This document shows, in pieces, positions 356-32,000 of a stretch of DNA of 32,000 nt. The stretch is taken from NCBI RefSeq assembly GCF_000012805.1, contig NC_007484.1:1140001-1172000 (forward strand). Reading direction: 5' to 3'. The stretch is from Nitrosococcus oceani ATCC 19707. Its GTDB lineage: Bacteria; Pseudomonadota; Gammaproteobacteria; Nitrosococcales; Nitrosococcaceae. The notes beneath the pieces are model-generated. The model ran no database searches. It was given only the letters and a program-made list of their open reading frames with translations, and had not been told where the DNA came from. The translations under genes were made by a program, and so were the position numbers. The first letter of the stretch is position 1. Each line of letters opens with the position of its first letter.

Positions 356-1582
356 GTGCCCCCCCGTTTGAGAAAACGACTAGTCAAGTCAATTAGAAAC
401 CGGGCTCGAGTGAGGTCGTCGGCGTCACGAAAAGCGGCGTCTCTGCCACGCCGAGAGGTAGGTGTCCGTGCCTATGAGCGCGGTGCGCGATCCAGGCTGC
501 AAAAATTTCGGCAAGGAACGGCTTTAGCCGTTGCGTTGACCGCAGCGCTACTACTGCTGTTCGGCGGTATGGATGAAACGGCGGGTCAAGAGCCGAATAA
601 TACCACGGTGATTTCCGCGCTTGATAGCCCTGCGGTTAAACAGCCCATCAAGGCCGATCCCGAAGCCTCGTTGGAGGAAGCGACCACGACTATCCGTGAT
701 CTGCTAAGCGGTTTTTATGGGTTGCTGCCAAAAATTCTAATTGCCCTGCTCTTCCTGGTGGCAGCCTGGCTGTTAGGAAAAGCCTTGCGGGTGATTACCC
801 ACAGATTGCTGCGGGGATGGGAACGAAGTGAGGCGATTGCCGCCCTGGTGCGCATCGCTCTCTTTTTAGTAGCCATTGGAGCGGGCCTCAGCGTTATTGC
901 AGGTGATGCGAGAGCCTTGGTGGGATCAGTGGGGCTGGCTGGGCTGGCGCTCTCATGGGCGTTGCAAACGCCCATCGAAAGCTTTACTGGCTGGGTGCTT
1001 AATGCCTTGCGAGACTATTATCGGCCTGGGGACCGTATTGCAGTGGGTGAGGTTTTTGGCGATGTATACCGCATTGACATTTTGACAACGACGGTTTGGG
1101 AAGCAGGCGGATCTGGCAAGCACGTGGCGGGCGCGCAACCGACGGGAGCTTTTATTACCTTTCCGAATTGGGAAATTCTCCGCTCCAATATTATCAATTA
1201 CAGTCGGGACTTTCCCTATGTGTGGGATGAAGTCGTGTTCGGGATTGCCAATGAAAGCGATCTCGCCTACACCGTCGAGATCTTTCGGCGCGTTGCCGGA
1301 GAAGTGGTTGGACCGATGATGCGTCAACCTATCGCCGAGTATCGGCGCTTGTTAGAGCGCGAGCGGCTAGCGTTCGATGTGGAAGCCGAGCCGCAGGTGT
1401 ATCTCTCCTTGGCAGAGGCATGGACCAACTGCACCATCCGTTATCTGGTGCCGGTTCGGCAGCGGCGGCGATGGGCGAGCGAGTTAATTCTAGCACTCTC
1501 CATTGAGATGATACGCCCCGAACACAAGGATCGCATCATAGGAGGGTATCCCCGTAGGGAAATCGATTTACTCGACAATTAG
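356..1582 (+). CDS. Mechanosensitive ion channel, MscS family
   Basis: 408-aa ORF. Hydrophobic helices (TALAVALTAALLLLF, ILIALLFLVAAWLL, IALFLVAIGAGLSVI) are followed by an MscS-type pore helix and beta domain (GLAGLALSWALQTPIESFTGW ... PGDRIAVGEVFGDVYRIDILTTTVWE). GTG start at 356 is uncertain; an alternative in-frame GTG lies at 410. The N-terminus is very basic. Confidence 0.8.
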   Translation: MPPRLRKRLVKSIRNRARVRSSASRKAASLPRREVGVRAYERGARSRLQKFRQGTALAVALTAALLLLFGGMDETAGQEPNNTTVISALDSPAVKQPIKADPEASLEEATTTIRDLLSGFYGLLPKILIALLFLVAAWLLGKALRVITHRLLRGWERSEAIAALVRIALFLVAIGAGLSVIAGDARALVGSVGLAGLALSWALQTPIESFTGWVLNALRDYYRPGDRIAVGEVFGDVYRIDILTTTVWEAGGSGKHVAGAQPTGAFITFPNWEILRSNIINYSRDFPYVWDEVVFGIANESDLAYTVEIFRRVAGEVVGPMMRQPIAEYRRLLERERLAFDVEAEPQVYLSLAEAWTNCTIRYLVPVRQRRRWASELILALSIEMIRPEHKDRIIGGYPRREIDLLDN

Positions 1583-1659: not shown

Positions 1660-2286
1660 CTATGCTTGCTTTATTTCCTTGATTGGCCCCAGCAGTTCGT
1701 CAAGGTGAGGGGAAATGGGCTCCCCGAGTGGCAGGAACCAGACTGGGGGTTTTCCTTGCTCGCGATATTGCCGGTCCAGGGCGTTGAGCACGTCTTGCGT
1801 TGACGGGGCCGGGCCGAGGAGTTTTTCCAGGTGGGAAGCTACTGGCTGATCCAGGGGCAGATCGAGTTGGGAGGGGCCAAGGAGCGCTTCCAAATGGGGC
1901 GCGATAGGCTCCGTGAGCGGCAAGAACCAAACGGCCGGCTTGTGTTCCCGCCGGTATTGTTCGTCCAGGGCGTTGAGCATCATCTGCACCGGCTGGGCCG
2001 GTCCCAGCAGCCGCTCGACTTCTTCCGGCGTGATGGGATTTAGCGGCCCTGGGGTCTGCGTTGCCGTTTGCAGCCACTGCTCGATGTCATCCGGCGGAAC
2101 ATCTAATGCGCTGAGTAAATGGCGGTAGTTTTCCAAATTCGATTGCATATACGGATGGGTATGGCCAGCCGTTTGCTGGGAACGGTAAAAGATTGCCGCC
2201 ATGCGACGGAAGAGGGGCTCGGCCTTGGTGAACAGAGCTTTGGCATTGAGCAATAGTGCAAGATTGTTCAGCAACGGTGCCGTCAA
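1660..2286 (-). CDS. C-terminal fragment of a disrupted STAND gene: terminal TPR_12-like repeats plus two 63-aa tandem repeats (likely pseudogene piece)
   Basis: N-terminus LLNNLALLLNAKALFTKAEPLFRRMAAIFYRSQQTAGHTHPYMQSNLENYRHLL matches the kinesin-light-chain-type TPR consensus. The annotated start is TTG. The same reading frame continues upstream through a single TGA (2350-2352) into the 99-aa ORF 2350..2649. Confidence 0.6.
   Translation of the reverse strand: MTAPLLNNLALLLNAKALFTKAEPLFRRMAAIFYRSQQTAGHTHPYMQSNLENYRHLLSALDVPPDDIEQWLQTATQTPGPLNPITPEEVERLLGPAQPVQMMLNALDEQYRREHKPAVWFLPLTEPIAPHLEALLGPSQLDLPLDQPVASHLEKLLGPAPSTQDVLNALDRQYREQGKPPVWFLPLGEPISPHLDELLGPIKEIKQA
1684..2034 (-). repeat. 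Coding tandem duplication, period 189 nt (63 aa), two units
   Basis: Residues 85-147 and 148-201 of the 208-aa ORF align at a constant 63-residue offset (ERLLGP/EKLLGP; LNALDEQYRREHKPAVWFLPLTEPIAPHLEALLGP vs LNALDRQYREQGKPPVWFLPLGEPISPHLDELLGP). The identical 16-mer tccagggcgttgagca occurs at 1775-1790 and 1964-1979, exactly 189 nt apart. Confidence 0.8.
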
Positions 2287-2401
2287 CGCGGTAATGTCGT
2301 GCTGGTCGGCTGCCGCGGTGGCGAAGGCGATATGGGCGCGTAGCGGCTCTCAACGCGGCCAGGTGCGCACATCCTGCGGATGCCCAGCCAGTTGTTGGGC
2401 C

Positions 2402-3307
2402 TCATCGACTAGCCTCAGAGCCAATGACAGCCAATAATAGTGCTGCCGGTGCTTGTGGAGGCCAAGTTTCCTCAAAACCGAGGTTAACCAATGGACCGCC
2501 GGCTTCGGCCAGATTCCGTTGCAGATTGGTTGGAGAATCGGCCGTCGCGAATAGCACCGCCGAATATTTATCCCTGTGCTGCCAGGTATATTCGACCGCC
2601 AGCCGCGTTTTGCCCACGCCCCCCAAGCCATGCACCGCCTTGCCAACAATGGCCGTTGCCTTGCTAGCCGCTTTCGTCAGGCTGGTGTGCAACTGCTGGA
2701 GAAAGGTTTCCCGGCCCTTGAACAGGGTACCCAGAGAGGAATAAGGGAGCAAGCAGGGGCGGTGTTGGGGAATCTCGCCGGGCCAAAGATTGTGCAAATC
2801 CCGCAGCACCCGGCGGCATAGGTGCTGCGCACCATCGAACGTGCCCCGATGTTCGCCCAGGTTTTTAAGCCATTCCCAATGGCGCTGCTGCGGGTGGCTA
2901 TCAGGCAGCGGGTTTTGATCCCAGCCGCCGGGTTGATAAAGATGGCAGCGCTTGCGGTGGTAGAGGGCTAGCCAGGCTTCCATTTGCGTGTAGGTCAGTG
3001 TCGGCGGGGAAGCGTGCAGTGCTGGCGCTAGCCATGGAAACCGCTCGGCGAAGTCGCCGTAGGTGTCAAGCAGCCAGAGAACTTCGTCCGGCTTGAGGGG
3101 TTGCCCTCCTTCGCGGCCCACCAAGTGGATCACGGCGTTGCAATGGTCGCGGATGTAGCGGTCGAGGGTTTGCAGCAGCTTGCCTCCGCCCTGGACCAGA
3201 TCGGCCTGCTCCTGCACCTTGATCCACGGCAGGTTAAGAGCGGCTTTCAACGTCTCGCGATGGGAGCCGAATTCGTCGGTGACAGCGGAGAGAAAGATCC
3301 GGCGCAT
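2402..3307 (-). CDS. N-terminal fragment of a STAND NTPase: DUF4062-like domain + NB-ARC-type P-loop, truncated about 60 aa after the Walker A motif (likely pseudogene piece)
   Basis: The N-terminus MRRIFLSAVTDEFGSHRETLKAAL ... AVIHLVGREGG ... TYTQMEAWLALYHRKRCHLY resembles the DUF4062 pattern (FISS..DL..ER, then SYTE.E...A). Walker A is GLGGVGKTRLAVEY. The ORF ends soon after, with no Walker B, winged-helix or other NB-ARC motifs. Confidence 0.6.
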   Translation of the reverse strand: MRRIFLSAVTDEFGSHRETLKAALNLPWIKVQEQADLVQGGGKLLQTLDRYIRDHCNAVIHLVGREGGQPLKPDEVLWLLDTYGDFAERFPWLAPALHASPPTLTYTQMEAWLALYHRKRCHLYQPGGWDQNPLPDSHPQQRHWEWLKNLGEHRGTFDGAQHLCRRVLRDLHNLWPGEIPQHRPCLLPYSSLGTLFKGRETFLQQLHTSLTKAASKATAIVGKAVHGLGGVGKTRLAVEYTWQHRDKYSAVLFATADSPTNLQRNLAEAGGPLVNLGFEETWPPQAPAALLLAVIGSEASR

Positions 3308-3355
3308 TTTAGACTCCAGTCTATTGGGGCATTTGCGGCCCTTGATTTCGCCTGC

Positions 3356-4360
3356 TCACCTTGCCAGCAGCGCCCTTGGACCAAGGCGGCAAGGGGGAAG
3401 CCAGGGGGTGTTTTCGCCAAGGTCTCCGTTCATTATGTCGAGGCCCATCGTCACCATGAGTTCGGCGTAACAGGATGAATAATAGCGTCTTTTATTAGGC
3501 GACGCCAATGCTACCGTGGCGCAGAGGGTCGCCAGGATATGCAGGGTAATAATCAAAGCGGCTGCATAGCGGAATAATTGTTGGTGCTTCTTGGCCCAGC
3601 CGCTGGCAAACTCTTTCCAATCGCTCGATCCATTGGGTGTCGCTGGGAATTTTTCCTCCCCTGCCAGGAGAGAAAATTGGTCCAAGGGTTCCGGGACAGC
3701 CGGCGGGCGAAAGGGGCGATCCGAATTGGAATGCCAGGTGTGATGGCAGACGGGGTGGCCGTTTTGAACGGCGATGCGAATTTCCAGCGCTGGGACGCCG
3801 ATGGCTTTGGCCCGTTCGAGCAGCTCGTTGGTCCCGCCCGCTTTATCCTGGGAATCGTCGCGCAGCAGGCACACGATGGCGTCGCTGACGCGGAGGATTT
3901 CGGCGTTCGTCTCGCGGAACCGCTCGGTGCGGTCCGGTGATTGGCTGATGACCCGCTGCTGGATGATGTGTTCCGAAGCGAGTAGCGATTCGGCCTCGCG
4001 CCGTTGAGCGGGCGTGAAATCAGGGGTTCCGCTGGAACTGGCGGCCGCTAGATAATCACCTGCCGGCTGCGGCAGGAAGAGGCGTTGCGGGATCTGTAAG
4101 GTCTGGCAGGCACGGCTAAAAAGCGTGTCCGCGCCGCAGGCGATTTGGGAGATTCCGCAGAGAAAGTGGTGGGAGGATAATTTCAACTGGCGAGGCAATT
4201 CGCCGAGGGATTTCACCAGGTATTGCTCCCCGGTGTCGCGCCATTGCCGCTCGGCATCGGGGTCGGCGGGCGGCTTTTCAAACAGTTGGCGCGATCCGGC
4301 AAAGCCGATTTGGACGACACAGGGAAGGGCGCGGGTTTGCTTCGTGGCCATGTGGGACAT
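3356..4360 (-). CDS. SLOG-like (LOG/DprA-type Rossmann) domain protein with a C-terminal transmembrane segment
   Basis: 334-aa ORF. Strand-loop VVQIGFAGSR, a DprA/LOG-like GISQIACGADTLFSRAC loop, and a late AIVCLL...KAGGTNELLERAKAIGVPALEI element fit the SLOG superfamily pattern. A hydrophobic helix YAAALIITLHILATLCATVALA lies near the C-terminus. The stop is 49 bp upstream of the DUF4062/STAND start on the same strand. The C-terminus may be truncated. Confidence 0.5.
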   Translation of the reverse strand: MSHMATKQTRALPCVVQIGFAGSRQLFEKPPADPDAERQWRDTGEQYLVKSLGELPRQLKLSSHHFLCGISQIACGADTLFSRACQTLQIPQRLFLPQPAGDYLAAASSSGTPDFTPAQRREAESLLASEHIIQQRVISQSPDRTERFRETNAEILRVSDAIVCLLRDDSQDKAGGTNELLERAKAIGVPALEIRIAVQNGHPVCHHTWHSNSDRPFRPPAVPEPLDQFSLLAGEEKFPATPNGSSDWKEFASGWAKKHQQLFRYAAALIITLHILATLCATVALASPNKRRYYSSCYAELMVTMGLDIMNGDLGENTPWLPPCRLGPRALLAR

Positions 4361-4446: not shown

Positions 4447-4728
4447 ATGCGTGTTATACACACTTCCGACTGGCACCTAGGGCAATATTTTATAGGAAAG
4501 AGCCGGAAGCGGGATCGCCAGGGAGAAACGCTGCCTATTATCGCTACCGGGCATCTCGCCACGGTTGGCAACGAATTTCTATCTAAATTAATTAAAAAAA
4601 CAATAGTTTATTGTATATCAACCTTGGCTGAAGGTTTTACAGGCTATGATGTTTGCGAAATACTAGCAGCTGTTAAGCAAGGGGTTACTGAATGGACCGG
4701 CCAGTGTATCCTTGATCTTTTAATTTAA
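4447..4728 (+). pseudogene. sbcD: sbcD (Mre11-type nuclease subunit) relic with internal deletion and 3' truncation
   Basis: MRVIHTSDWHLGQYFIGKSR is the canonical SbcD N-terminus (phosphoesterase motif I, D-x-H). It is joined after about 8 residues to LPIIATGHLATVG, which sits roughly 180 residues into intact SbcD. The intervening GD..D and GNHD motifs are absent. The remaining 52 codons are AT-rich and unrelated. No sbcC follows. Confidence 0.7.
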
Positions 4729-4778: not shown

Positions 4779-5093
4779 ATGAGAACTAAAGATGTGATGA
4801 TGGTCCGTATTTACCTCACAGAGGCAGAGGGCCATCTGGATACGCTGCTGAAGCGGCTCCATGATTGGAGCCAGGTGCAAGGGGTTACCGTGTTTCATGG
4901 AATAGCGGGATTTGGGCCTTCGGGACCCATGCACCCAATTTCTCCAGCCCGGATTTCAGGGGATTTACCGGTAGTCGTTGAGTTTTTTGATGAACCGGCT
5001 AAAGCTGAAGTGATATTGGAGACCCTTTCCCATATTATTAAACCGGGTCATGTGGTGTGTTGGCCTGCACGTATTATTGTGGAAGATAAATAG
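4779..5093 (+). CDS. DUF190 (UPF0166, PII-like fold) protein
   Basis: 104 aa. VRIYLTEAEGH...LHDWSQVQGVTVFHGIAGFG...DLPVVVEFFDEPAKAEVILETL matches the DUF190 pattern (RIY.ge.d...G.TV.RGi.GfG...dLPvviE.vD). Confidence 0.75.
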   Translation: MRTKDVMMVRIYLTEAEGHLDTLLKRLHDWSQVQGVTVFHGIAGFGPSGPMHPISPARISGDLPVVVEFFDEPAKAEVILETLSHIIKPGHVVCWPARIIVEDK

Positions 5094-6383
<1,290 letters not shown>

Positions 6384-14957: not shown

Positions 14958-16526
14958 TTAGTGGCGGAAATGGCGCATTCCAGTAAAGAGCATTGCCATA
15001 TCCCATTCATTTGCAGCGGCAATGACTTCCTTATCCCGCCTGGAACCCCCAGGCTGGATAACAGCACAGATTCCTGCTTTAGCAGCGGCTTCCAGGCCAT
15101 CCCGAAAGGGAAAAAAAGCATCTGAGGCCAGGACCGCATTTTGGGTTGAAAAACCTGCCTCTTTCGCTTTAAGTTCCGCAATTTGACTACTCATCACCCG
15201 GCTTGTTTGCCCCGCGCCCACGCCTATGGTCCGTCCATTCTTGGCATAGACGATAGCATTGGATTTGACGAATTTTACCACCTGCCAGGCAAAGAGGAGA
15301 TCCTTTAATTCCTGGGGAGTAGGGGAGCGTTCCGTAACAGTTTGAAGCGCCTCTAAAGGCACTGTATCGGTATCCTGGTCCTGGAGTAGTAAGCCGCCGA
15401 CAATTCGCTTATAGTCCCAACCGGCGGCAGTTTGAGATGACCATTCACCACAAGCCAAGACTCGTATATTAGGTTTGGATGTGAGTATTTCTTGGGCCGT
15501 TGTTGTTACTGCAGGGGCAATAATCACTTCGGCGAATTGGCGCTTGATGATGGTTTTTGCAGTAGTTGGATCTAACGGCTCGTTGAAAGCAATAATGCCA
15601 CCAAAAGCGGAAACTGGATCAGCGGCGTAGGCTCGTTCATAAGCTTCTTGTAGGTTTATTCCTGTAGCCACTCCACAAGGATTGGCGTGTTTTACGATGA
15701 CGCAGGTAGGAGCCTCGCGAAAAGCTTTAACACATGCTAAAGCGGCATCTGTATCCGCAATATTGTTAAAGGAGAGTGTCTTGCCTTGTAATTGTTGGGC
15801 GGTGGCAATGGTTCCCGCTGGAGGGGGTTGTTCTACATAGAAGGCCGCCCGCTGATGAGGATTCTCTCCGTAACGCATTTCTTGCTTTTTGGCAAATTGA
15901 ATATTGTAGCTGCGGGGAAACGCGCTCTTTTCGCCATTTGGAGTCAACGCTCCTAGGTAATTAGCGATGGTGGCATCGTAGCGTGCAGTGTGTTCAAAGC
16001 TTTTCACCGCCAATTCAAAACGGGTAGAGGATGAGAGGGCTCCGCCGTTTGCTTCCATTTCACGGAGGACTCTTTCGTAGTCGTCTGGATCGACGATTAC
16101 GGTCACCGCCGCATGGTTTTTAGCCGCAGCTCGGAGCAGGGTGGGTCCGCCAATATCGATGTTCTCGATAGCGGTAGCCAAGTCGCAATCTGGTTTTGCC
16201 ACCGTTTGTTCGAAGGGATAAAGATTAACGGCTACCAGATCGATGGGGGCAATATTATATTCCGCCATAGTGGTGGCATCGGTTTCCCTTCGTCCTAGAA
16301 TGCCTCCATGGATTTTGGGGTGGAGTGTTTTAATGCGTCCCCCCATCATTTCTGGGAAACCGGTATAGGTGGATATTTCTGTGGCTCCAATGTTGTTTTT
16401 TTGGAGTAATTGGGCGCTGCCACCAGTGGATAAGATTTTGACACCCCGCGCCTGGAGCCGGTGTGCAAAGGGAACGATGCCGGTTTTGTCGGAGACACTG
16501 ATAAGGGCGCGGGCTATGGGTTTCAT
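14958..16526 (-). CDS. purH: Bifunctional AICAR formyltransferase / IMP cyclohydrolase
   Basis: 522 aa. [34 protein letters not shown], ending FTGMRHFRH. Confidence 0.97.
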
Positions 16527-16595
16527 GGGTTTTATTGATAAGGTTCTGGTTTAGACTTTCTAAGTTTTAAAACAATACGCTCTTCCAGGATGATA

Positions 16596-16892
16596 TTAGC
16601 CAATGGCGCTGATGCCATATTGTCTTAGCTTTTTGCGAAGGGTGCTGCGGTTCATACCAAGAAATTTAGCAGCTTTGGTTTGATTACCTCCGGTATGCTT
16701 CAAGGTGGTTTGCAGTAAGGGGGGTTCAATCTCTTTCATCACGATCTCATAGAGATCAGCGGGATCATGCCCATTCAGACGATCGAAATACTCATCAAGT
16801 GCCTGTCGGAGGCACTCGCTAATGGGTGAATTGCGCTGTTCTTCGTTGATGGTCAGTTTGCGTTCAGTTGTTCGTGCAGGCTCGTCGCTCAT
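16596..16892 (-). CDS. fis: DNA-binding protein Fis
   Basis: The C-terminal 70 aa (LRQALDEYFDRLNGHDPADLYEIVMKEIEPPLLQTTLKHTGGNQTKAAKFLGMNRSTLRKKLRQYGI) closely parallel E. coli Fis. ATG at 16892 gives 98 aa with GGTGG 6 nt upstream. The ORF is open up to 16976, so the start is uncertain. Confidence 0.85.
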   Translation of the reverse strand: MSDEPARTTERKLTINEEQRNSPISECLRQALDEYFDRLNGHDPADLYEIVMKEIEPPLLQTTLKHTGGNQTKAAKFLGMNRSTLRKKLRQYGISAIG

Positions 16893-26830: not shown

Positions 26831-29065
26831 ATGCCAAGGCTAGCTAAGGCCATCATGCTAGGATTGCTCACGGCATGGGTCGGCTTTCTGGCAACGATGG
26901 TACCTCCTCTGGGTCGCCTTGAGGTTGAGCTAGGACTGGCTTGGCTTTTCGAACTGCGGGGTTCCCGTGCCGCCCCGGAAGAGGTTGTTATTGTCACCAT
27001 TGACAGGGAGTCCTCGGATTGGCTTGGTCTGCCCAATGAGCCGGATAAATGGCCGCGGGAACTTCATGCCCACCTGGTGCAGCGCCTTGTTCAGGAAGGC
27101 GCTGCGGTGATTGCTTTTGATATCATTTTCGATGAGCCACGCGATCCTGTCCAGGATCGCCTTTTTGCGGAGGCCATCCGGAAAGCGGGTAATGTGGTGC
27201 TCTTCGAATATTTAAAAAAACACCGGAAATGGGTTGCGATAGGAGGCAGGCAAGCAGAGATTGAAATCGAGGAGCGGGTCCCCCCTGTTCCCGAATTTGC
27301 CAGCGCTGCTGTTACATTAGCGCCTTTTCCACTCCCGAAAGTGCCCGCTAGGGTAAGCCAAGCCTGGCTTTTTAAATTTGGCGTACCCACACTGCCCGTT
27401 GCCGCCTTGCAGGTTTATGCACGCCCCTATTATGGAGATTTATTCCGTTTACTCAAGGAGGTGACCCCCGAGAAAATTCGGTGGTTAAAAAACGACTGGC
27501 GGTCCGTTCCAAGCCAACCTGCATTGATAGCGCTTGCTAGGCATCTGCGAGAATGGTTTCAGGGGGATGCTCAACTGCCACAAAGTCTATTGGCCCGCTT
27601 ACAGAGTCCTGAAGCCCTGAGTCGTTTTCAGGGGCAATCAATTGTTGCCGCTTTGATCCGGGGCTTGAGCCAGGAAGAAAGCTTTTTTCTTGATTTTTAT
27701 GGCCCGCCTCATAGTATTGTCACCTTCCCTTATTACCAGTTACTAAAAGAGAATGGCGGTGCTCCTTTGCCTGTTTCATTTAAGGGCAAAGCCGTTTTTG
27801 TCGGTTTTAGCGAGCAATTTCAACCTGAGCAGAAGGACGGGTTTTACACCGTGTATTCCCAGCCCGATGGCTTGGATATCAGCGGAGTAGAGATTGCGGC
27901 AACGGCCTTTGCCAATCTTTTGGAACAGCGAAGCGTGACCCCTTTGCCCCTTCCCCTCCATTACCTCATTATTCTGTTATGGGGAGCAGGGATAGGATTT
28001 TTTTTCCTTTACTTACCTATTTATGCCCTGCTTCCTAGCGCGGCGGTTTTAGGCATGGGCTATATGAGCGTAGCCCATCACTTGTTTACGGGTAACGGGC
28101 TATGGCTGCCTGTAACCGCGCCTTTACTCTGGCAGTTGCCATTAGGATTGCTGGGAGCCTTGTTCTGGCGGTATTTAATGATGGAGACGGTGATTAAGCC
28201 TTATCTCCCGGCGTGGTTTTGGCGGTGGTGGAAATGGCACTCTGAATCGCCACCGCCACAAATTGCCAACGGCATTTGTCTTGCCACCGACGTTCAGCAA
28301 TATACTGCGCTTGCAGAACGATTTGACCTTGAGCGGCTGCGCCCGCTTCTTAATCGCTATTTCCGAAGTATTTTTGAACCCGTCAAGTACCGGGGAGGAT
28401 TTATCGCTGATATCAAAGGTGATGCGATAATGGCTATCTGGGCGGATCTTATTAGCAAAGAGGACATTAGGGAGCAAGCCTGTTTAGCAGCCCTTGATAT
28501 TGAGAAGGCTGTTGCGGAATTTAACCGTTGTACCCCCGAAGCCCCCCTACCTACACGGATCGGACTCCATTACGGCAAGATAGTCATTGGTAGCGTAGGC
28601 TCTAGCGAGCATCTCGAATACCGAGCGGTTGGAGATGTGGTTAATACGGCCAGTAGGATTGAGAATTTAAATAAGCTTCTTGGAACCCGCGTATTGGTTT
28701 CCCACGAAGTCGTTGTGGGACTAGAAAGTATTTTTACCCGAGAGCTAGGGGAATTTTGCGTAAAAGGCAGACAACAGCCTTTAGCGATTTATGAATTAAT
28801 AGGCCGTGCAGAAGAGGTGAAGGAGTCTTTACGGCGTTACTGTAAGCAATTCGACAGGGCTCTCCAAGTGTTTCAGCGCCGCCGTTGGCTGGAGGCTCTA
28901 GAGGCTTTTAAGGCGTTATTGGCACGCTACGGTAACGATGGTCCTTCCCTTTTTTACTTACAATTATCTAAATATTATGCTCGAACCCCCCCGCCTGTTT
29001 CTTGGAATGGCATTATTAATCTGAGCAATGTGGAAGAACGCCATAATTTTGGTCAAGGCAGATAG
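26831..29065 (+). CDS. CHASE2 sensor domain-containing class III adenylate/guanylate cyclase
   Basis: 744 aa. N-terminal TM, a roughly 350-aa periplasmic CHASE2-like region (VVIVTIDRESSDWLG ... AVIAFDIIFDEP ... KAVFVGFSEQ), a 3-4 TM block, then the cyclase domain with metal Asp residues (LATDVQQYTAL, IKGDAIMAIW) and VGDVVNTASRIE. The C-terminal tail is TPR-like. Confidence 0.88.
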   Translation: MPRLAKAIMLGLLTAWVGFLATMVPPLGRLEVELGLAWLFELRGSRAAPEEVVIVTIDRESSDWLGLPNEPDKWPRELHAHLVQRLVQEGAAVIAFDIIFDEPRDPVQDRLFAEAIRKAGNVVLFEYLKKHRKWVAIGGRQAEIEIEERVPPVPEFASAAVTLAPFPLPKVPARVSQAWLFKFGVPTLPVAALQVYARPYYGDLFRLLKEVTPEKIRWLKNDWRSVPSQPALIALARHLREWFQGDAQLPQSLLARLQSPEALSRFQGQSIVAALIRGLSQEESFFLDFYGPPHSIVTFPYYQLLKENGGAPLPVSFKGKAVFVGFSEQFQPEQKDGFYTVYSQPDGLDISGVEIAATAFANLLEQRSVTPLPLPLHYLIILLWGAGIGFFFLYLPIYALLPSAAVLGMGYMSVAHHLFTGNGLWLPVTAPLLWQLPLGLLGALFWRYLMMETVIKPYLPAWFWRWWKWHSESPPPQIANGICLATDVQQYTALAERFDLERLRPLLNRYFRSIFEPVKYRGGFIADIKGDAIMAIWADLISKEDIREQACLAALDIEKAVAEFNRCTPEAPLPTRIGLHYGKIVIGSVGSSEHLEYRAVGDVVNTASRIENLNKLLGTRVLVSHEVVVGLESIFTRELGEFCVKGRQQPLAIYELIGRAEEVKESLRRYCKQFDRALQVFQRRRWLEALEAFKALLARYGNDGPSLFYLQLSKYYARTPPPVSWNGIINLSNVEERHNFGQGR

Positions 29066-29175
29066 TCACCGCCGGGCCTACTGAAAAAAGCTGGAAGAGA
29101 TCTCTTATGTAGACTATTTATAAATTAATAAAGCTATAAAAAAGTAGGGTTCTCCTAAGAGAGGAGAGAGCCGGT

Positions 29176-32000
29176 ATGCGCTTAAGATTTTCTGTGCTAG
29201 GGATAGCGCTTTTTGTTTTTGGGTTTTCCTGGGTAGGGGCGGATGAGCGTTGCGCCTCGCCGGTGGCGCAAATTGTTTCCCTCCAGGGGCGGGTGGAGGT
29301 CACTCCAGTGGACGAAAGGCGTTGGCGATCGGTGGGGTTGCGAGAGAAATTTTGCGCCGGAGACAGGATTCGCATCGAGGCTTATAGTCGTGCCTTGGTG
29401 CAGCTTCAAGATAATACTCTCCTGCACCTGGATGGGGGTACCCTAGTGACTTTTTCAGGCATTGAACCTAACAAGCCTTCCTGGTTTGAACTCCTGAAGG
29501 GCGCTATCCACTTAATCAGCCGTTTTCCCCATCGGCTGGAAGTCAAAACGCCCTTTGTGAATGCGGCGGTGGAAGGCACTGAATTTGCGATTCGGGTAGA
29601 ACCGGAAAAAGCCTTGCTCTGGGTCTTCGAGGGGCGGGTCCTTTTTCACAATCCTACTGGCCAGCTCACCGTCACCAGCGGCGAGGCGGCGGTGGCCGAG
29701 GCCGGCCAAGCGCCGCGGCGGCGGCTGGTGATCCAACCCCGGGAAGCAGTGCAATGGGCGCTCTATTATCCGCCGCTCATTGATCTGCGTCCCAGCGTTT
29801 ATCCAAGCGGTCCAGAAGCCCAAGGAATTCACGTGGCGTTGCGGGCCTATCGGGATGGGGATTTGCTCACCGCCCTGGGCCGCTTGGAACAGGTTCCGAT
29901 TGGAGCGCGAGAGGCCAGCTATTTCACTTTGCAGGCGGCCTTGCTCCTAGTGGTGGGGCGCATCGATGAAGCCCGCCCCAACATTCAGCGTGCTTTGCAG
30001 CTCGATCCCGACCACGGAACCGCTTATGCCCTGCAAGCCATCATCGCCCTGGCGCAGAACCGAAAAGAGGACGCCCTTCGGTTGGCCCGGCAGGGGGCTA
30101 AGCTCGATCCCCAGTCCTCCATTCCTCAAATCGCCCTGTCCTATGTTTATCAGGGAAGGTTTAATATCGAGCAAGCGTTACAACATGCCCAGCAGGCTAC
30201 CGAGCTTTTCCCTGGCGAGGCCCTTGCCTGGGCGAGGGTAGCGGAATTACAACTCTCCCTGGGTGATTTGGATGGAGCCGCCAAAGCCGCCCAACAGGCG
30301 GTAGCCCTCGACCCGGATTTAGCTCGGACCCAAACCGTGCGGGGCTTTGCCGAGTTGACGGCCATTGATATTGAGGAAGCCAAAGCGAGTTTTCAGCGGG
30401 CCATTGAACTGGACCCCGCCGATCCCCTCTCCCGCCTTGGGTTGGGACTGGCCAAAATCCGCCAGGGGGATCTCAAGGCAGGCACTGAGGAAATCGAAAT
30501 TGCCGCCAGCCTGGACCCCAATAATTCGCTGATTAGAAGTTATCTCGGCAAAGCCTATTACGACCAGAAACGGGGAGAGGCGGCCGCAACGGAGCTGGCG
30601 ATAGCCAAGGAACTCGATCCTAACGATCCCACCCCCTGGTTCTACGACGCCATTCGCAAGCAAACGACGAATAGGCCGGTGGAAGCCTTGCATGACATGC
30701 AAAAGGCCATTGAACTGAATGATAACCGGGCGGTGTACCGCTCGCGATTACTTATGGACCAAGATCTGGCCGCAAGAAGTGCGAGTCTCGGACGCATTTA
30801 CAACGATTTGGGCTTTCAGCAACGGGGCCTATTGGAGGGATGGAAATCGGTTAACACTGATCCCAGCAACTACTCCGCCCATCGGCTATTGGCGGACAAC
30901 TATGCGGCATTACCAAGGCATGAAATTGCCAGGGTAAGTGAGTTATTGCAATCCCAACTTTTGCAACCGCTTAACCTCACGCCCGTGCAGCCAAGCTTGG
31001 CAGAAAGTAATCTGCTTCTTTTAGAAGGTGCCGGTCCTTCAGGGCTTGCGTTTAATGAGTTTAACCCATTGTTCACGCGCAATCGCCTAGCCTTGCAGGC
31101 ATCCGGTGTTTTTGGCAGCAATGATACCTTGGGTGATGAGGTGACTCAGTCGGGGCTGTGGAAAAATTTCTCTTATAGTGTGGGACAGTTTCATTCTGAA
31201 ACGGACGGATTTCGGGAAAATAGCGACTTTGCGCGAAACACTTATAATGTATTTACTCAAGGGGCTTTATCTCCTAATACAAACTTGCAAGCGGAATTTA
31301 GACATGATGAGCGCATACAAGGAGATTTAGCTCTTAGATTTGATCCAAATTTTTCCAAAGTTCTTCGCGAAACCAGTCGTGTCAACACATACAGATTAGG
31401 AGCGCGGCATGCTTTTTCGCCTAACTCGCAGATTATAGCTTCATTAAGTTATCAAAACGTTAATGTTAAGCAAAAAACACAAACCCAAAGAACCATTTCC
31501 ATTCCTACCCCACTTGGCCCGTTAGAAACAGAAATTCTGATTCCTACAGAAGCTACGATTAATAGAAATGGATTTATAGGCGAATTACAACATTTCTATA
31601 CTAATGAAAAAGCCACGGTAATTTCTGGTTTCGGTCATATTAACAATGATGTTATTCAAAATGTCACTTTTCCTGAGAATAAACCGCCTTTGACTGAAGT
31701 TATTACCCACCCAGATATAAGAAAAGTTAACATTTATAATTATTCTCAGATCCGTGCTTTTGATAAGTTAACTGCAATACTGGGGTTAAGCATAGATTCT
31801 TTGGAAATAAGAGGTCAACTCGATAAAACTCAAGTGAACCCAAAATTCGGTCTAATTTGGATGCTGCATTCTTCAACGACTCTTCGGCTGGCAGGGTTTA
31901 GAAGCATGAGTACCACAAGAACTGCTAATCAGACTATTGAGCAGACACAGGTTGCTGGTTTTAATCAATTTTTCGATGATGTAAATGGGACCGATGCTTG
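29176..32000 (+). CDS. Secreted FecR-domain + TPR-array + beta-barrel-like protein (3' partial, runs off the window)
   Basis: I hand-translated frame 1 from ATG 29176 (GAGAGGAGAGAG RBS upstream) and found it open for 941 codons to the window end. It is absent from the ORF track, presumably because no stop lies in the window. Signal peptide MRLRFSVLGIALFVFGFSWVGA. FecR-like beta region (GDRIRIEAYSRALVQLQDNTLLHL ... TPFVNAAVEGTEFAIRVE ... VFEGRVLF). At least 8 TPR-like units follow (ALQLDPDH, GAKLDPQS, AVALDPDL, AIELDPAD, AASLDPNN, AKELDPND). The C-terminus has alternating-hydrophobic beta-strand character (FSYSVGQFHSETDGF, YNVFTQGAL, LQAEFRH). Confidence 0.85.
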   Translation, partial: MRLRFSVLGIALFVFGFSWVGADERCASPVAQIVSLQGRVEVTPVDERRWRSVGLREKFCAGDRIRIEAYSRALVQLQDNTLLHLDGGTLVTFSGIEPNKPSWFELLKGAIHLISRFPHRLEVKTPFVNAAVEGTEFAIRVEPEKALLWVFEGRVLFHNPTGQLTVTSGEAAVAEAGQAPRRRLVIQPREAVQWALYYPPLIDLRPSVYPSGPEAQGIHVALRAYRDGDLLTALGRLEQVPIGAREASYFTLQAALLLVVGRIDEARPNIQRALQLDPDHGTAYALQAIIALAQNRKEDALRLARQGAKLDPQSSIPQIALSYVYQGRFNIEQALQHAQQATELFPGEALAWARVAELQLSLGDLDGAAKAAQQAVALDPDLARTQTVRGFAELTAIDIEEAKASFQRAIELDPADPLSRLGLGLAKIRQGDLKAGTEEIEIAASLDPNNSLIRSYLGKAYYDQKRGEAAATELAIAKELDPNDPTPWFYDAIRKQTTNRPVEALHDMQKAIELNDNRAVYRSRLLMDQDLAARSASLGRIYNDLGFQQRGLLEGWKSVNTDPSNYSAHRLLADNYAALPRHEIARVSELLQSQLLQPLNLTPVQPSLAESNLLLLEGAGPSGLAFNEFNPLFTRNRLALQASGVFGSNDTLGDEVTQSGLWKNFSYSVGQFHSETDGFRENSDFARNTYNVFTQGALSPNTNLQAEFRHDERIQGDLALRFDPNFSKVLRETSRVNTYRLGARHAFSPNSQIIASLSYQNVNVKQKTQTQRTISIPTPLGPLETEILIPTEATINRNGFIGELQHFYTNEKATVISGFGHINNDVIQNVTFPENKPPLTEVITHPDIRKVNIYNYSQIRAFDKLTAILGLSIDSLEIRGQLDKTQVNPKFGLIWMLHSSTTLRLAGFRSMSTTRTANQTIEQTQVAGFNQFFDDVNGTDA

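Follow-up and report, generated by a model that had tools for sequence, protein, structure and literature searches.

The two-gene cassette at positions 1660-4360 of the window, the 32,000-nucleotide stretch of Nitrosococcus oceani ATCC 19707 DNA that was analysed, is probably a decayed anti-phage module that was acquired horizontally, a Thoeris-like pair that no longer functions in N. oceani. Gene 1 (ORF-A) joins a predicted SLOG domain to the start of a membrane module, and gene 2 (ORF-B and ORF-C) is a broken DUF4062-STAND-TPR gene. By itself the window documents only a dead foreign cassette of apparent defence type in Nitrosococcus, and its value is as a pointer to the intact loci at which the pair can be studied (L016, L001, L005, L035 and L010).

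Structure and decay of the cassette

Both genes lie on one strand, as the earlier note had it, here the minus strand, with a gap of 48 nt rather than the 49 bp given there (Table 1). The cassette has a GC content of 0.599, against 0.509 for the whole window, and its GC3 of 0.67-0.69 stands apart from that of the 23 other ORFs of the window (0.505 +/- 0.039; z > 4). The region is thus compositionally foreign to its surroundings, as had been proposed from spot counts of 41/60 G+C at 3781-3840 and 29/60 at 5701-5760, both exact on recount. A search of the borders for signs of a mobile element yielded no tRNA and no Rfam match, and direct repeats flanking the cassette amounted to short, chance-level matches.

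Table 1. Features of the cassette, in window coordinates
Feature	Position	Strand	Basis or remarks
ORF-A, SLOG-4TM (SLOG-SLATT) family, truncated gene	3356..4360	-	334 aa; homology to ~540-aa proteins
Predicted SLOG domain, aa 1-210	3731..4360	-	AF2 model and Foldseek; pLDDT ~95 in span
Long helix, aa 244-286, with first membrane helix; last family-homologous segment	3503..3631	-	Alignment, AF2 model
48-aa non-homologous tail and stop, past deletion junction	3356..3502	-	No profile match to tail
ORF-B, DUF4062/NIR TIR-like domain and NB-ARC start, pseudogene fragment	2402..3307	-	301 aa; profile matches, homologues
NIR/DUF4062 domain, aa 1-175	2783..3307	-	E110 = GAA at 2980-2978; (S/T)YTQ(W/M)E motif
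Linker and NTPase P-loop segment	2465..2782	-	Walker A GLGGVGKT at 2629-2606; Walker B onward absent
Deletion junction, frame -2 to -3	2434..2464	-	blastn/tblastn against N. watsonii locus L022
STAND-gene 3' remnant: last TPRs and C-terminal module	1660..2433	-	N. watsonii comparison
ORF-C, mechanical ORF within 3' remnant	2286..1660	-	ORF list
Two tandem ~60-aa C-terminal repeats, PxVWFLPLxEPIxPHLxxLLGP	1663..2046	-	Copies 60% identical, E 2e-23

ORF-A shares 38-60% identity with its ~540-aa relatives, most of which carry SLATT_1 (PF18181). None of the sequence-profile searches of ORF-A (Pfam, NCBIfam, PADLOC, PDB profiles) returned a match, to SLOG or otherwise, and the domain was resolved by structure prediction only. 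In the AF2 model (overall pLDDT 87) the N-terminus is predicted to adopt the SLOG fold, as the earlier note had suggested for this protein, with Foldseek matches to YpsA 2nx2 (TMt 0.64), DprA, ShosA 8zva and the LOG-like structures 1rcu, 1wek and 9us2, each at probability 1.00 (0.89-1.00 if TRPM8 is included); the model of an intact homologue gave the same matches. The motifs comprise a Gly loop, GFAGSR (19-24), GISQIAxGAD (69-78) and GGT (175-177); across 57-71 homologues, conservation of their residues is 90% or higher.

A set of polar residues, R24, S71, Q72, D78, R93, D114, R144 and D160, is near-invariant in the family, as might be expected of an enzyme. The SLOG domain could then be an N-glycosidase of LOG/YpsA type, producing or breaking down a nucleotide signal and so tuning or feeding a TIR-like or STING neighbour, with the membrane part as an anchor. 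SLOG domains of the LOG clade act as hydrolases, and a role for some SLOG domains in generating or processing ADPr derivatives is predicted by Aravind's group (PMC9503650); moreover, no cyclase was found among the tested flanking ORFs of the STING-type neighbours described below. Against catalysis, the acidic residue (Glu) of the LOG motif PGGxGTxxE is not conserved, the family consensus being GGTxxLLxxA, the conserved C-terminal SLATT_1 serves CBASS and Thoeris type VII as an effector module, and Thoeris types I and III use SLOG as their receptor. An enzymatic role is accordingly judged very improbable, and a receptor role for the SLOG domain is preferred.

The intact relatives have a fixed layout of SLOG, four transmembrane helices and SLATT_1, the last scoring 33.5, 30.9 and 29.7 bits in P0002, P0023 and P0064 (Pfam gathering cut-off 26.3). 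The AF2 model of the intact homologue P0004 (pLDDT 92.6, pTM 0.90) has four long helices (239-289, 300-329, 394-451 and 461-486). P0004 thus shows the SLATT-type arrangement of paired membrane helices with a cytoplasmic helical region behind them, of which the window copy keeps the first helix only. A Foldseek search with the full-length model of an intact homologue returned nothing meaningful for the membrane part. The SLOG-4TM family comprises 418 representative clusters (E <= 1e-30), with no relatives found in viral contigs, and PADLOC models cover neither of the intact proteins, SLOG-4TM or DUF4062-STAND.

By alignment and tblastn, the homology of ORF-A to this family ends at aa 286 (nt 3503), and the family profile aligns to aa 4-292 only. 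The missing ~250 aa hold membrane helices 2-4 and SLATT_1; this domain is deleted, and Pfam finds no match to it in ORF-A. The 48-aa tail (…GDLGENTPW…) was considered as an in-frame SLATT C-terminus and rejected, the family profile having no match there. ORF-A is therefore a dead, truncated remnant and not a whole SLOG-membrane gene. The hydrophobic helix of a SLOG-membrane fusion had been correctly noticed in the earlier note, but it is the first of four in a SLATT-type module rather than a single helix, and decay, there attributed to the STAND gene only, extends to ORF-A.

ORF-B has weak Pfam matches to DUF4062 (PF13271; E 0.04, 14.5 bits, cut-off 24.7) and to AAA_16, and its P-loop region matches NCBIfam FxSxx_TPR (3.5e-16). 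Many of its homologues carry PF13271, which reaches 41-53 bits in the relatives paired with SLOG-4TM genes, and PF00931 (NB-ARC) is also present among them. The TPR signal is weak in the window copy (a single TPR_10 match, E 0.25) and clear in the N. watsonii orthologue, which has NB-ARC and TPR_12. The DUF4062-like, NB-ARC-type P-loop and TPR calls made from the window alone are thus backed by homologues. E110, whose codon was confirmed in ORF-B, is conserved in 90% of 121 homologues; NIR domains have a reported catalytic Glu (10.64898/2026.09.04.749371), and the shared motif, rather than an alignment, suggests that E110 is the counterpart of E108 of PsAvs2.

The lesions of the STAND gene were defined by comparison with N. 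watsonii, whose protein aligns over aa 54-310 to window positions 3232-2465 in frame -2. A deletion of ~0.93 kb has removed ~296 codons (N. watsonii aa 311-606), which encode the remainder of NB-ARC together with the winged helix and the first TPRs. In the 3' remnant the frame is interrupted by a TGA at 2352-2350, a Trp position in N. watsonii, and one 42-aa TPR unit is absent; within this remnant, ORF-C is 58% identical to the C-terminus of a 938-aa DUF4062-TPR protein at L014. The window holds Walker A and not a complete NTPase (Walker A, Walker B and winged helix). Effector, NTPase and repeat sensor occur in one protein at L016 (1048 and 1053 aa), at L035 and in N. watsonii (904 aa), but not in the window copy. 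The STAND gene of N. oceani, already described as decayed in the earlier note, is dead.

In N. watsonii the cassette sits at the equivalent place in the chromosome with different deletions: the N. watsonii copy retains 560 bp of SLATT sequence at the site of the ORF-A tail, absent from the window, and its SLOG domain lacks the N-terminal half. Because the cassette occupies the same site and is differently broken in the two species, it was acquired before their split and was already present in their common ancestor. Between the species, dS is similar in the cassette (0.17-0.24) and its flanks (0.18-0.29), synonymous change is in excess within the cassette (P = 5e-8), and dN/dS is 0.3-0.5 in the cassette against 0.04-0.14 in the flanks. 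The value for the ORF-C segment of the cassette is protein-guided, since an indel invalidates the ungapped comparison.

These values bear on whether the remnants still function in N. oceani, for example as a SLOG-plus-one-helix nucleotide sponge or regulator. The dN/dS of the cassette is below 1, and the reading frame of ORF-A is intact, annotated (as a hypothetical protein) and 99% identical between N. oceani strains. The dN/dS of the cassette is nonetheless three- to ten-fold above that of the flanks, the loss in N. watsonii of the N-terminal SLOG half instead leaves the two species no common surviving unit, and neither promoter-like nor terminator-like sites exceed shuffled expectation. Residual function is thus very improbable, and the cassette is best read as nonfunctional.

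Linkage of SLOG-4TM genes with TIR-superfamily genes

The function of the module must be sought in its intact relatives. Of 45 informative loci, 27 place a gene of the TIR superfamily no more than 3 kb from an intact SLOG-4TM gene, and in 19 of the 27 that gene follows immediately downstream in the same orientation. The gap usually ranges from a small overlap to ~220 nt, and at L005 and L010 it is ~430 nt with a NIR fragment between the genes. Linked loci span Planctomycetota, Verrucomicrobiota, Binatia, Gemmatimonadota and Proteobacteria, and two or three TIR-like genes surround one SLOG-4TM gene at L016, L025 and L038. Neighbours were called by simple ORF finding, with home-made HMMs for part of the set. 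The adjacency is non-random.

The constant feature of the neighbours is the TIR-like domain. In many of them it is joined to a STAND NTPase and to TPRs, and what accompanies it varies: NB-ARC, NACHT or nSTAND1 with TPR, STING, SIR2 or nothing. Homologues of both cassette genes are adjacent at L001, L005, L016, L045, L048, L055, in N. watsonii and elsewhere, so that the pair does recur, as the reading in the earlier note requires. The conserved partner of SLOG-4TM is nevertheless drawn from the TIR superfamily at large (TIR_2, DUF4062 or NDT-like fused to STING) and not specifically the DUF4062-STAND gene proposed there. Profile matches, adjacency in other genomes and atypical composition were all found, each the opposite of an outcome that the earlier note had named as counting against its reading.

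It is somewhat unlikely, though a serious alternative, that the cassette comprises two independent single-gene defence systems in one islet, brought together by the clustering typical of islands and exchanging no signal. The DUF4062-STAND-TPR protein would be a self-sufficient Avs-type NAD+ depleter, and the SLOG-4TM protein would answer another signal or a distant generator. Because published NIR-Avs proteins defend alone by NAD+ depletion, the STAND gene needs no partner (10.64898/2026.09.04.749371). Consistent with independence, none of the seven distinct loci checked for the closest DUF4062-STAND relatives (42-72% identity) has a SLOG-4TM neighbour, 18 of the 45 SLOG-4TM loci (40%) have no TIR-like gene nearby, and some have defence-type genes of other kinds close by, such as a patatin (L014) or another SLATT protein (L006). 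Left unexplained by independence are the fixed order, common strand and gaps of tens of nucleotides at 19 loci in several phyla, and the consistent TIR-superfamily identity of a neighbour whose other domains vary. A functional pair is therefore favoured.

Proposed mechanism and significance

In the Thoeris-like pair, the product of gene 2 would be NLR-like, beginning with a TIR-like DUF4062/NIR NADase domain and continuing with an NB-ARC STAND NTPase and with TPRs that sense a phage component. Oligomerisation driven by the NTPase would activate the NIR domain, and NAD+ would be cleaved. ADP-ribose, or a nucleotide derived from it, may then be bound in the cytoplasm by the SLOG domain of gene 1, upon which the four-helix SLATT-type module would open or assemble, breaching the membrane and leading to abortive infection. 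We infer the cross-talk of the two proteins, the SLOG domain as receptor, its ligand and the membrane disruption. That the NLR-like TIR/NIR heads of these relatives not only drain NAD+ but also make a nucleotide signal read by the SLOG-4TM effector is a tentative proposal, with the odds somewhat against it. If true, it would provide the first evidence of NIR domains (DUF4062) as signal generators.

SLOG-4TM is a candidate Thoeris effector type that awaits validation, and NLR-like proteins headed by a TIR-like or NIR domain are among its preferred neighbours. This class was left out of the published Thoeris survey, which deliberately excluded Avs-type TIRs (10.64898/2025.12.03.692087), and is treated as a self-contained NAD+ depleter in the NIR papers.

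Comparison with known systems

In Thoeris, type I pairs a ThsB TIR with ThsA (SIR2-SLOG), type III combines several TIRs with a DprA-type SLOG effector, and type VII consists of a TIR and a SLATT effector responding to cADPR. SLOG thus serves as signal receptor in types I and III and SLATT as effector in type VII (10.64898/2025.12.03.692087). Like these systems, the SLOG-4TM loci place a TIR-superfamily gene next to an effector gene, one in which a SLATT-type membrane module accompanies a SLOG receptor fold. One effector may be surrounded by several TIR-like genes, much as Thoeris loci often have several thsB genes, with four TIRs in a type III example (10.64898/2025.12.03.692087, Table S1). 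The type III SLOG is of YpsA/DprA type (PMC13276650), structurally the nearest to the SLOG fold predicted here. Unlike in Thoeris, DUF4062/NIR or TIR is fused to a STAND NTPase, usually with TPR, here and at seven or more other loci, in place of a small stand-alone ThsB; and SLOG and SLATT are joined in one protein in the SLOG-4TM family. "TIR + SLOG and 4TM" is listed among the candidate Thoeris types; on testing in E. coli, two such operons conferred no defence, and the type was not validated (10.64898/2025.12.03.692087, Table S2). Membership of these operons in the SLOG-4TM family is supported only indirectly, by a TIR with 33% identity to that of L056 (E 1e-16).

NIR-Avs proteins such as PsAvs2 share with gene 2 an N-terminal DUF4062, a central STAND NTPase, C-terminal TPRs and a conserved Glu in the TIR-like domain. 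They differ in being single-gene NAD+-depleting systems, and the window copy lacks most of the NTPase. DUF4062 is the NIR domain, the NADase effector of Avs proteins, and yields ADPR (10.64898/2026.09.04.749371). The earlier note knew of no described system made of this pair; the parts themselves are known, this NADase and the "TIR + SLOG and 4TM" candidate both being published. Swarozyc and Evangelion are further DUF4062 systems, and a SLOG or SLATT partner goes unmentioned in three papers on DUF4062.

CBASS likewise uses SLATT_1 as a nucleotide-triggered membrane effector module. Its CD-NTase/SMODS cyclase, by contrast, was not seen among the flanking ORFs tested beside SLOG-4TM genes, whose receptor domain would be SLOG. 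TIR-STING effectors have counterparts in the TIR-like-STING proteins that adjoin three SLOG-4TM loci (L007, L018 and L030). YpsA, DprA, ShosA and LOG have the predicted fold in common with gene 1 (Foldseek probability 1.00; TMt 0.64-0.66 to YpsA), but sequence identity is 11-18% and the SLOG domain here is fused to a four-helix membrane module.

The proposed logic of an NLR sensor, a TIR-like NADase and a separate membrane permeabiliser resembles the plant pathway from TIR-NLR through a small molecule to the EDS1/helper-NLR channel. The analogy is one of logic only, with no homology claimed for the downstream parts. Should the pair signal, bacteria would have a counterpart of the plant route from TIR-NLR through a small molecule to a membrane channel, and STAND pattern recognition would be linked to TIR small-molecule signalling in bacterial immunity.

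Two gene remnants in a GC-rich cassette

The cassette at 1660-4360 holds ORF-A, which shares 99% identity with a hypothetical protein of N. oceani, followed by ORF-B and ORF-C, opposite ends of a single dead DUF4062-NB-ARC-TPR (STAND) gene. Identification and decay of both cassette genes are close to certain. The earlier note placed the genes on one strand, as is the case, and 49 bp apart; 48 nt separate ORF-A from ORF-B. GC in the window peaks in the cassette (0.599 versus 0.509 for the entire window), whose GC3 is 0.67-0.69 versus 0.505 +/- 0.039 in 23 other ORFs (z > 4). Thus the proposal that it is compositionally foreign holds within the window, and the spot GC counts on which that proposal drew were reproduced exactly. 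The bordering mscS-like gene is of intermediate composition (GC 0.557, GC3 0.579, z about 1.7-1.9). A second GC-rich stretch, of about 0.585 and preceded by a 744-aa ORF, lacks tRNAs, Rfam matches and any ORF of more than 127 aa, and may be another decayed foreign segment.

Features of the cassette and its surroundings (window positions)
Feature	Position	Strand or frame	Length	Remark
mscS-like gene	356-1582	+		one border of cassette
ORF-C	2286..1660	-	208 aa	
STAND C-terminal repeats	1663-2046	-	two of ~60 aa	
Match to N. watsonii aa 607-904	2433-1663	frame -3		
In-frame TGA	2352-2350			Trp in N. watsonii
ORF-B	3307..2402	-	301 aa	
Match to N. watsonii aa 54-310	3232-2465	frame -2		
ORF-A	4360..3356	-	334 aa	
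First half of SLOG domain	4362-3966			absent in N. watsonii
sbcD remnant	4447-4728	+		directly upstream of cassette
DUF190 gene, then serS	4779-6383			other border of cassette
ORF	26831-29065		744 aa	
Second GC-rich stretch	29100-31100			

The N-terminus of ORF-A had no match in the sequence libraries searched. With 71 homologues as input, AlphaFold2 gave a confident model (pLDDT 87), whose top Foldseek matches all belong to the SLOG superfamily at probability 1.00 (ShosA, YpsA, DprA, LOG-like 1rcu, 1wek and 9us2), with a TM score of 0.64 over the target for B. subtilis YpsA; the TRPM8 N-terminal domain is matched at probability 0.89. The SLOG motifs recognised in the earlier note (GFAGSR following the first strand, GISQIAxGAD, and GGT late in the domain) are each at least 90% conserved across the SLOG-4TM family, the relatives of ORF-A. 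These are proteins of about 540 aa, most of which match Pfam SLATT_1 in their C-terminal half, with scores that pass the gathering threshold on rescan. The model of an intact homologue, P0004 (pLDDT 92.6, pTM 0.90), has SLOG at 1-210, then four long helices as two pairs. The family is large, with 418 representative clusters (E <= 1e-30), and its architecture is uniform, the best 150 almost all covering the entire profile. The LOG-type motif has the consensus GGTxxLLxxA without a conserved acidic residue, which mildly favours a role for SLOG as a receptor, not an enzyme.

Homology of ORF-A to this family ends at aa 286 (nt 3503) and is followed by a 48-aa unrelated tail. The hydrophobic helix reported near the C-terminus is therefore the first of four membrane helices. 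ORF-A is a truncated SLOG-4TM gene that lacks about 250 residues, the SLATT_1 domain among them.

Homologues of ORF-B contain PF13271 (DUF4062) and PF00931 (NB-ARC), and ORF-B itself retains E110, the conserved Glu of the (S/T)YTQ(W/M)E motif, and the Walker A GLGGVGKT. At the corresponding site, the N. watsonii chromosome has this cassette too, and in it an NB-ARC/TPR ORF of 904 aa. Residues 311-606 of that protein have no counterpart in the window, so about 0.93 kb is missing from the window copy: Walker B with the remaining NB-ARC, the winged helix and the initial TPRs. The window copy also has a frame change, lacks one 42-aa TPR unit and is interrupted by an in-frame TGA. The earlier note was right that the STAND gene had decayed, as the deletion, frame change and TGA relative to N. 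watsonii attest, but the SLOG gene is broken too, and the window holds the wreckage of both. The C-terminal repeats (PxVWFLPLxEPIxPHLxxLLGP, in tandem, copies 60% identical), a module that occurs also at 16211-16792 of locus L014, match no family, the sole Pfam match being weak and sub-threshold (YscX). The entire ORF-C is 58% identical to the DUF4062-TPR protein of L014.

Age and decay of the cassette

The N. watsonii copy has other lesions: its SLOG domain is missing the first half, and its DUF4062 the first ~25 codons. The NB-ARC region and 560 bp of SLATT sequence, both lost in N. oceani, are still present. Since the breaks differ between the two sequences, the lesions are independent and the cassette predates the split of the species. 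Synonymous divergence in the shared cassette segments (0.17-0.24) is similar to that in serS, trpS, DUF190 and mscS (0.18-0.29); dN/dS is 0.3-0.5 versus 0.04-0.14 in the same flanking genes. The dN/dS values, together with an excess of synonymous changes over the neutral expectation (P = 5e-8), indicate that the cassette genes were under relaxed selection for part of the time since the split and died later. The mscS-like gene is kept in N. watsonii, with dN/dS 0.09.

Most of sbcD has been deleted, and only SbcD residues 1-26 (MRVIHTSDWHLGQ...) and 186-205 align to its remnant, a third decayed gene beside the cassette on a flank that N. watsonii shares. This corner of the chromosome is thus a small gene graveyard.

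Neighbours of intact relatives

Loci encoding SLOG-4TM relatives were collected from genomes (21) and metagenomes (39), and their neighbours were annotated with Pfam and with HMMs built for this analysis. A TIR-superfamily gene lies within 3 kb of the SLOG-4TM gene in 27 of 45 informative, non-redundant loci. In 19 of these 27 it directly follows the SLOG-4TM gene on the same strand, mostly with anything between a slight overlap and a gap of about 220 nt; in L005 and L010 a gap of about 430 nt contains a NIR (DUF4062) fragment. STAND NTPases are fused to many of the TIR-like neighbours and TPR repeats occur in several; two or three TIR-like genes surround one SLOG-4TM gene in L016, L025 and L038. 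The hosts are Planctomycetota, Verrucomicrobiota, Gemmatimonadota, Binatia and Proteobacteria. Because fewer than 10% of genomes carry DUF4062 genes (10.64898/2026.09.04.749371), the adjacency appears to be far beyond chance, as judged from that genome frequency.

Neighbours of SLOG-4TM genes (L016, Binatia MAG CAYJOD010000029.1, range 18353-39921; L001, JAGQOZ010000659.1; L005, Kuenenia JAYTAK010000267.1)
Neighbour	Loci
DUF4062/NIR	L001, L005, L007, L010, L014, L016, L035, L036, L038, L045, L048, L055
DUF4062/NIR by homology to L035	L024, L029
TIR_2	L002, L004, L010, L025, L028, L033, L044, L046, L049, L052, L056, L058
Nucleoside-deoxyribosyltransferase-like domain fused to prokaryotic STING	L007, L018, L030
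NTPase type of neighbour	NB-ARC, L010; NACHT or AAA_16, L016; nSTAND1, L024, L029, L035; P-loop, L004

The STING proteins, of ~365 aa, directly follow the SLOG-4TM gene (L007 2331-3422, L018 9425-10534, L030 11683-12768); in L007 and L018 the N-terminus also matches the nucleoside-deoxyribosyltransferase family, and no nucleotide cyclase was recognisable among the scanned flanking ORFs of the three loci. Elsewhere, another protein, in which SLATT_1 is joined to a thioesterase-like domain, lies directly upstream of the SLOG-4TM gene (L006 7985-9934), and fragments of a second SLOG-4TM copy lie upstream in L023 (7508-8845).

Viewed from the other gene, none of seven distinct loci of the closest DUF4062-STAND relatives (42-72% identity) has a SLOG-4TM neighbour. 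The link is therefore asymmetric, SLOG-4TM genes having TIR-like neighbours while DUF4062-STAND genes mostly stand alone, and the co-occurrence anticipated for the pair is seen from the SLOG-4TM side only. Several of these relatives are split into two or three ORFs (gene from 6001; L062 276+657, L065 432+227, L067 472+297+217 aa), which could reflect frequent decay of the gene family or assembly errors. Two are paired instead with a trypsin-like protease: in L069 (311-2916) and L070 (176-2787), 362-aa DUF4062 proteins (70-72% identity) precede a protease gene of ~507 aa. Trypsin_2 genes also lie upstream of the DUF4062-STAND gene in L062 (3555-8774), and DUF4062 with a trypsin-like protease may be another recurrent pairing.

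A putative signalling pair and its published relatives

DUF4062 is a TIR-like NADase, renamed NIR, that converts NAD+ to ADPR and nicotinamide and forms the N-terminal effector in NLR-like defence proteins, those of Avs included (10.64898/2026.09.04.749371). In the intact ancestor, the NLR-like protein would sense a phage component through its TPR arm, the STAND NTPase would drive oligomerisation and the NIR head would then cleave NAD+; ADPR or a derivative would be bound by the SLOG domain of the partner, whose SLATT-type membrane module would permeabilise the membrane. That the ancestor was a coupled two-gene signalling module is, overall, somewhat favoured, whereas for the signalling step between the two proteins the balance is about even. 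The competing explanation, two independent neighbours with no coupling, draws its main strength from NIR-Avs proteins acting alone and from the partnerless DUF4062-STAND relatives. It is nevertheless rather unlikely, given that the TIR-like domain is constant while the sensor varies (STAND-TPR, STING, SIR2 or none), that gene order is fixed and that gaps are short, which together make the strongest argument for coupling.

The domain calls of the earlier note were good and its observation was real, although the parts are already published. Besides Avs, DUF4062 occurs in Swarozyc (10.64898/2026.05.01.722283) and Evangelion (10.64898/2026.06.25.731849); neither these two papers nor the NIR study (10.64898/2026.09.04.749371) mentions SLOG or SLATT, and the latter speculates that some NIR domains may make signalling molecules. 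SLATT was predicted by Aravind's group to be an "ADPr derivative-regulated effector", and TIR-SLOG systems were described (PMC9503650, PMC7159879). In Thoeris, TIR proteins make ADPR-derived signals, read by a SLOG domain in types I and III, whereas type VII has a SLATT effector triggered by cADPR (10.64898/2025.12.03.692087; PMC13276650).

The SLOG-4TM effector type has itself been flagged as an unvalidated candidate: a possible Thoeris type with a "SLOG and 4TM" effector (IMG 2862473379, 2691454910), of which two operons gave no defence in E. coli (Table S2), was listed in a survey that removed Avs-type TIRs from its analysis (10.64898/2025.12.03.692087). The Nitrospira TIR of one such operon shares 33% identity (E 1e-16) with the TIR adjacent to the SLOG-4TM gene in L056, which indirectly supports membership of both effectors in one family. 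No description of SLOG-4TM paired with NLR-like NIR or TIR proteins was found in the accessible literature. The intact ancestor of the cassette was probably a signalling pair of the Thoeris kind combined with an Avs-like sensor.
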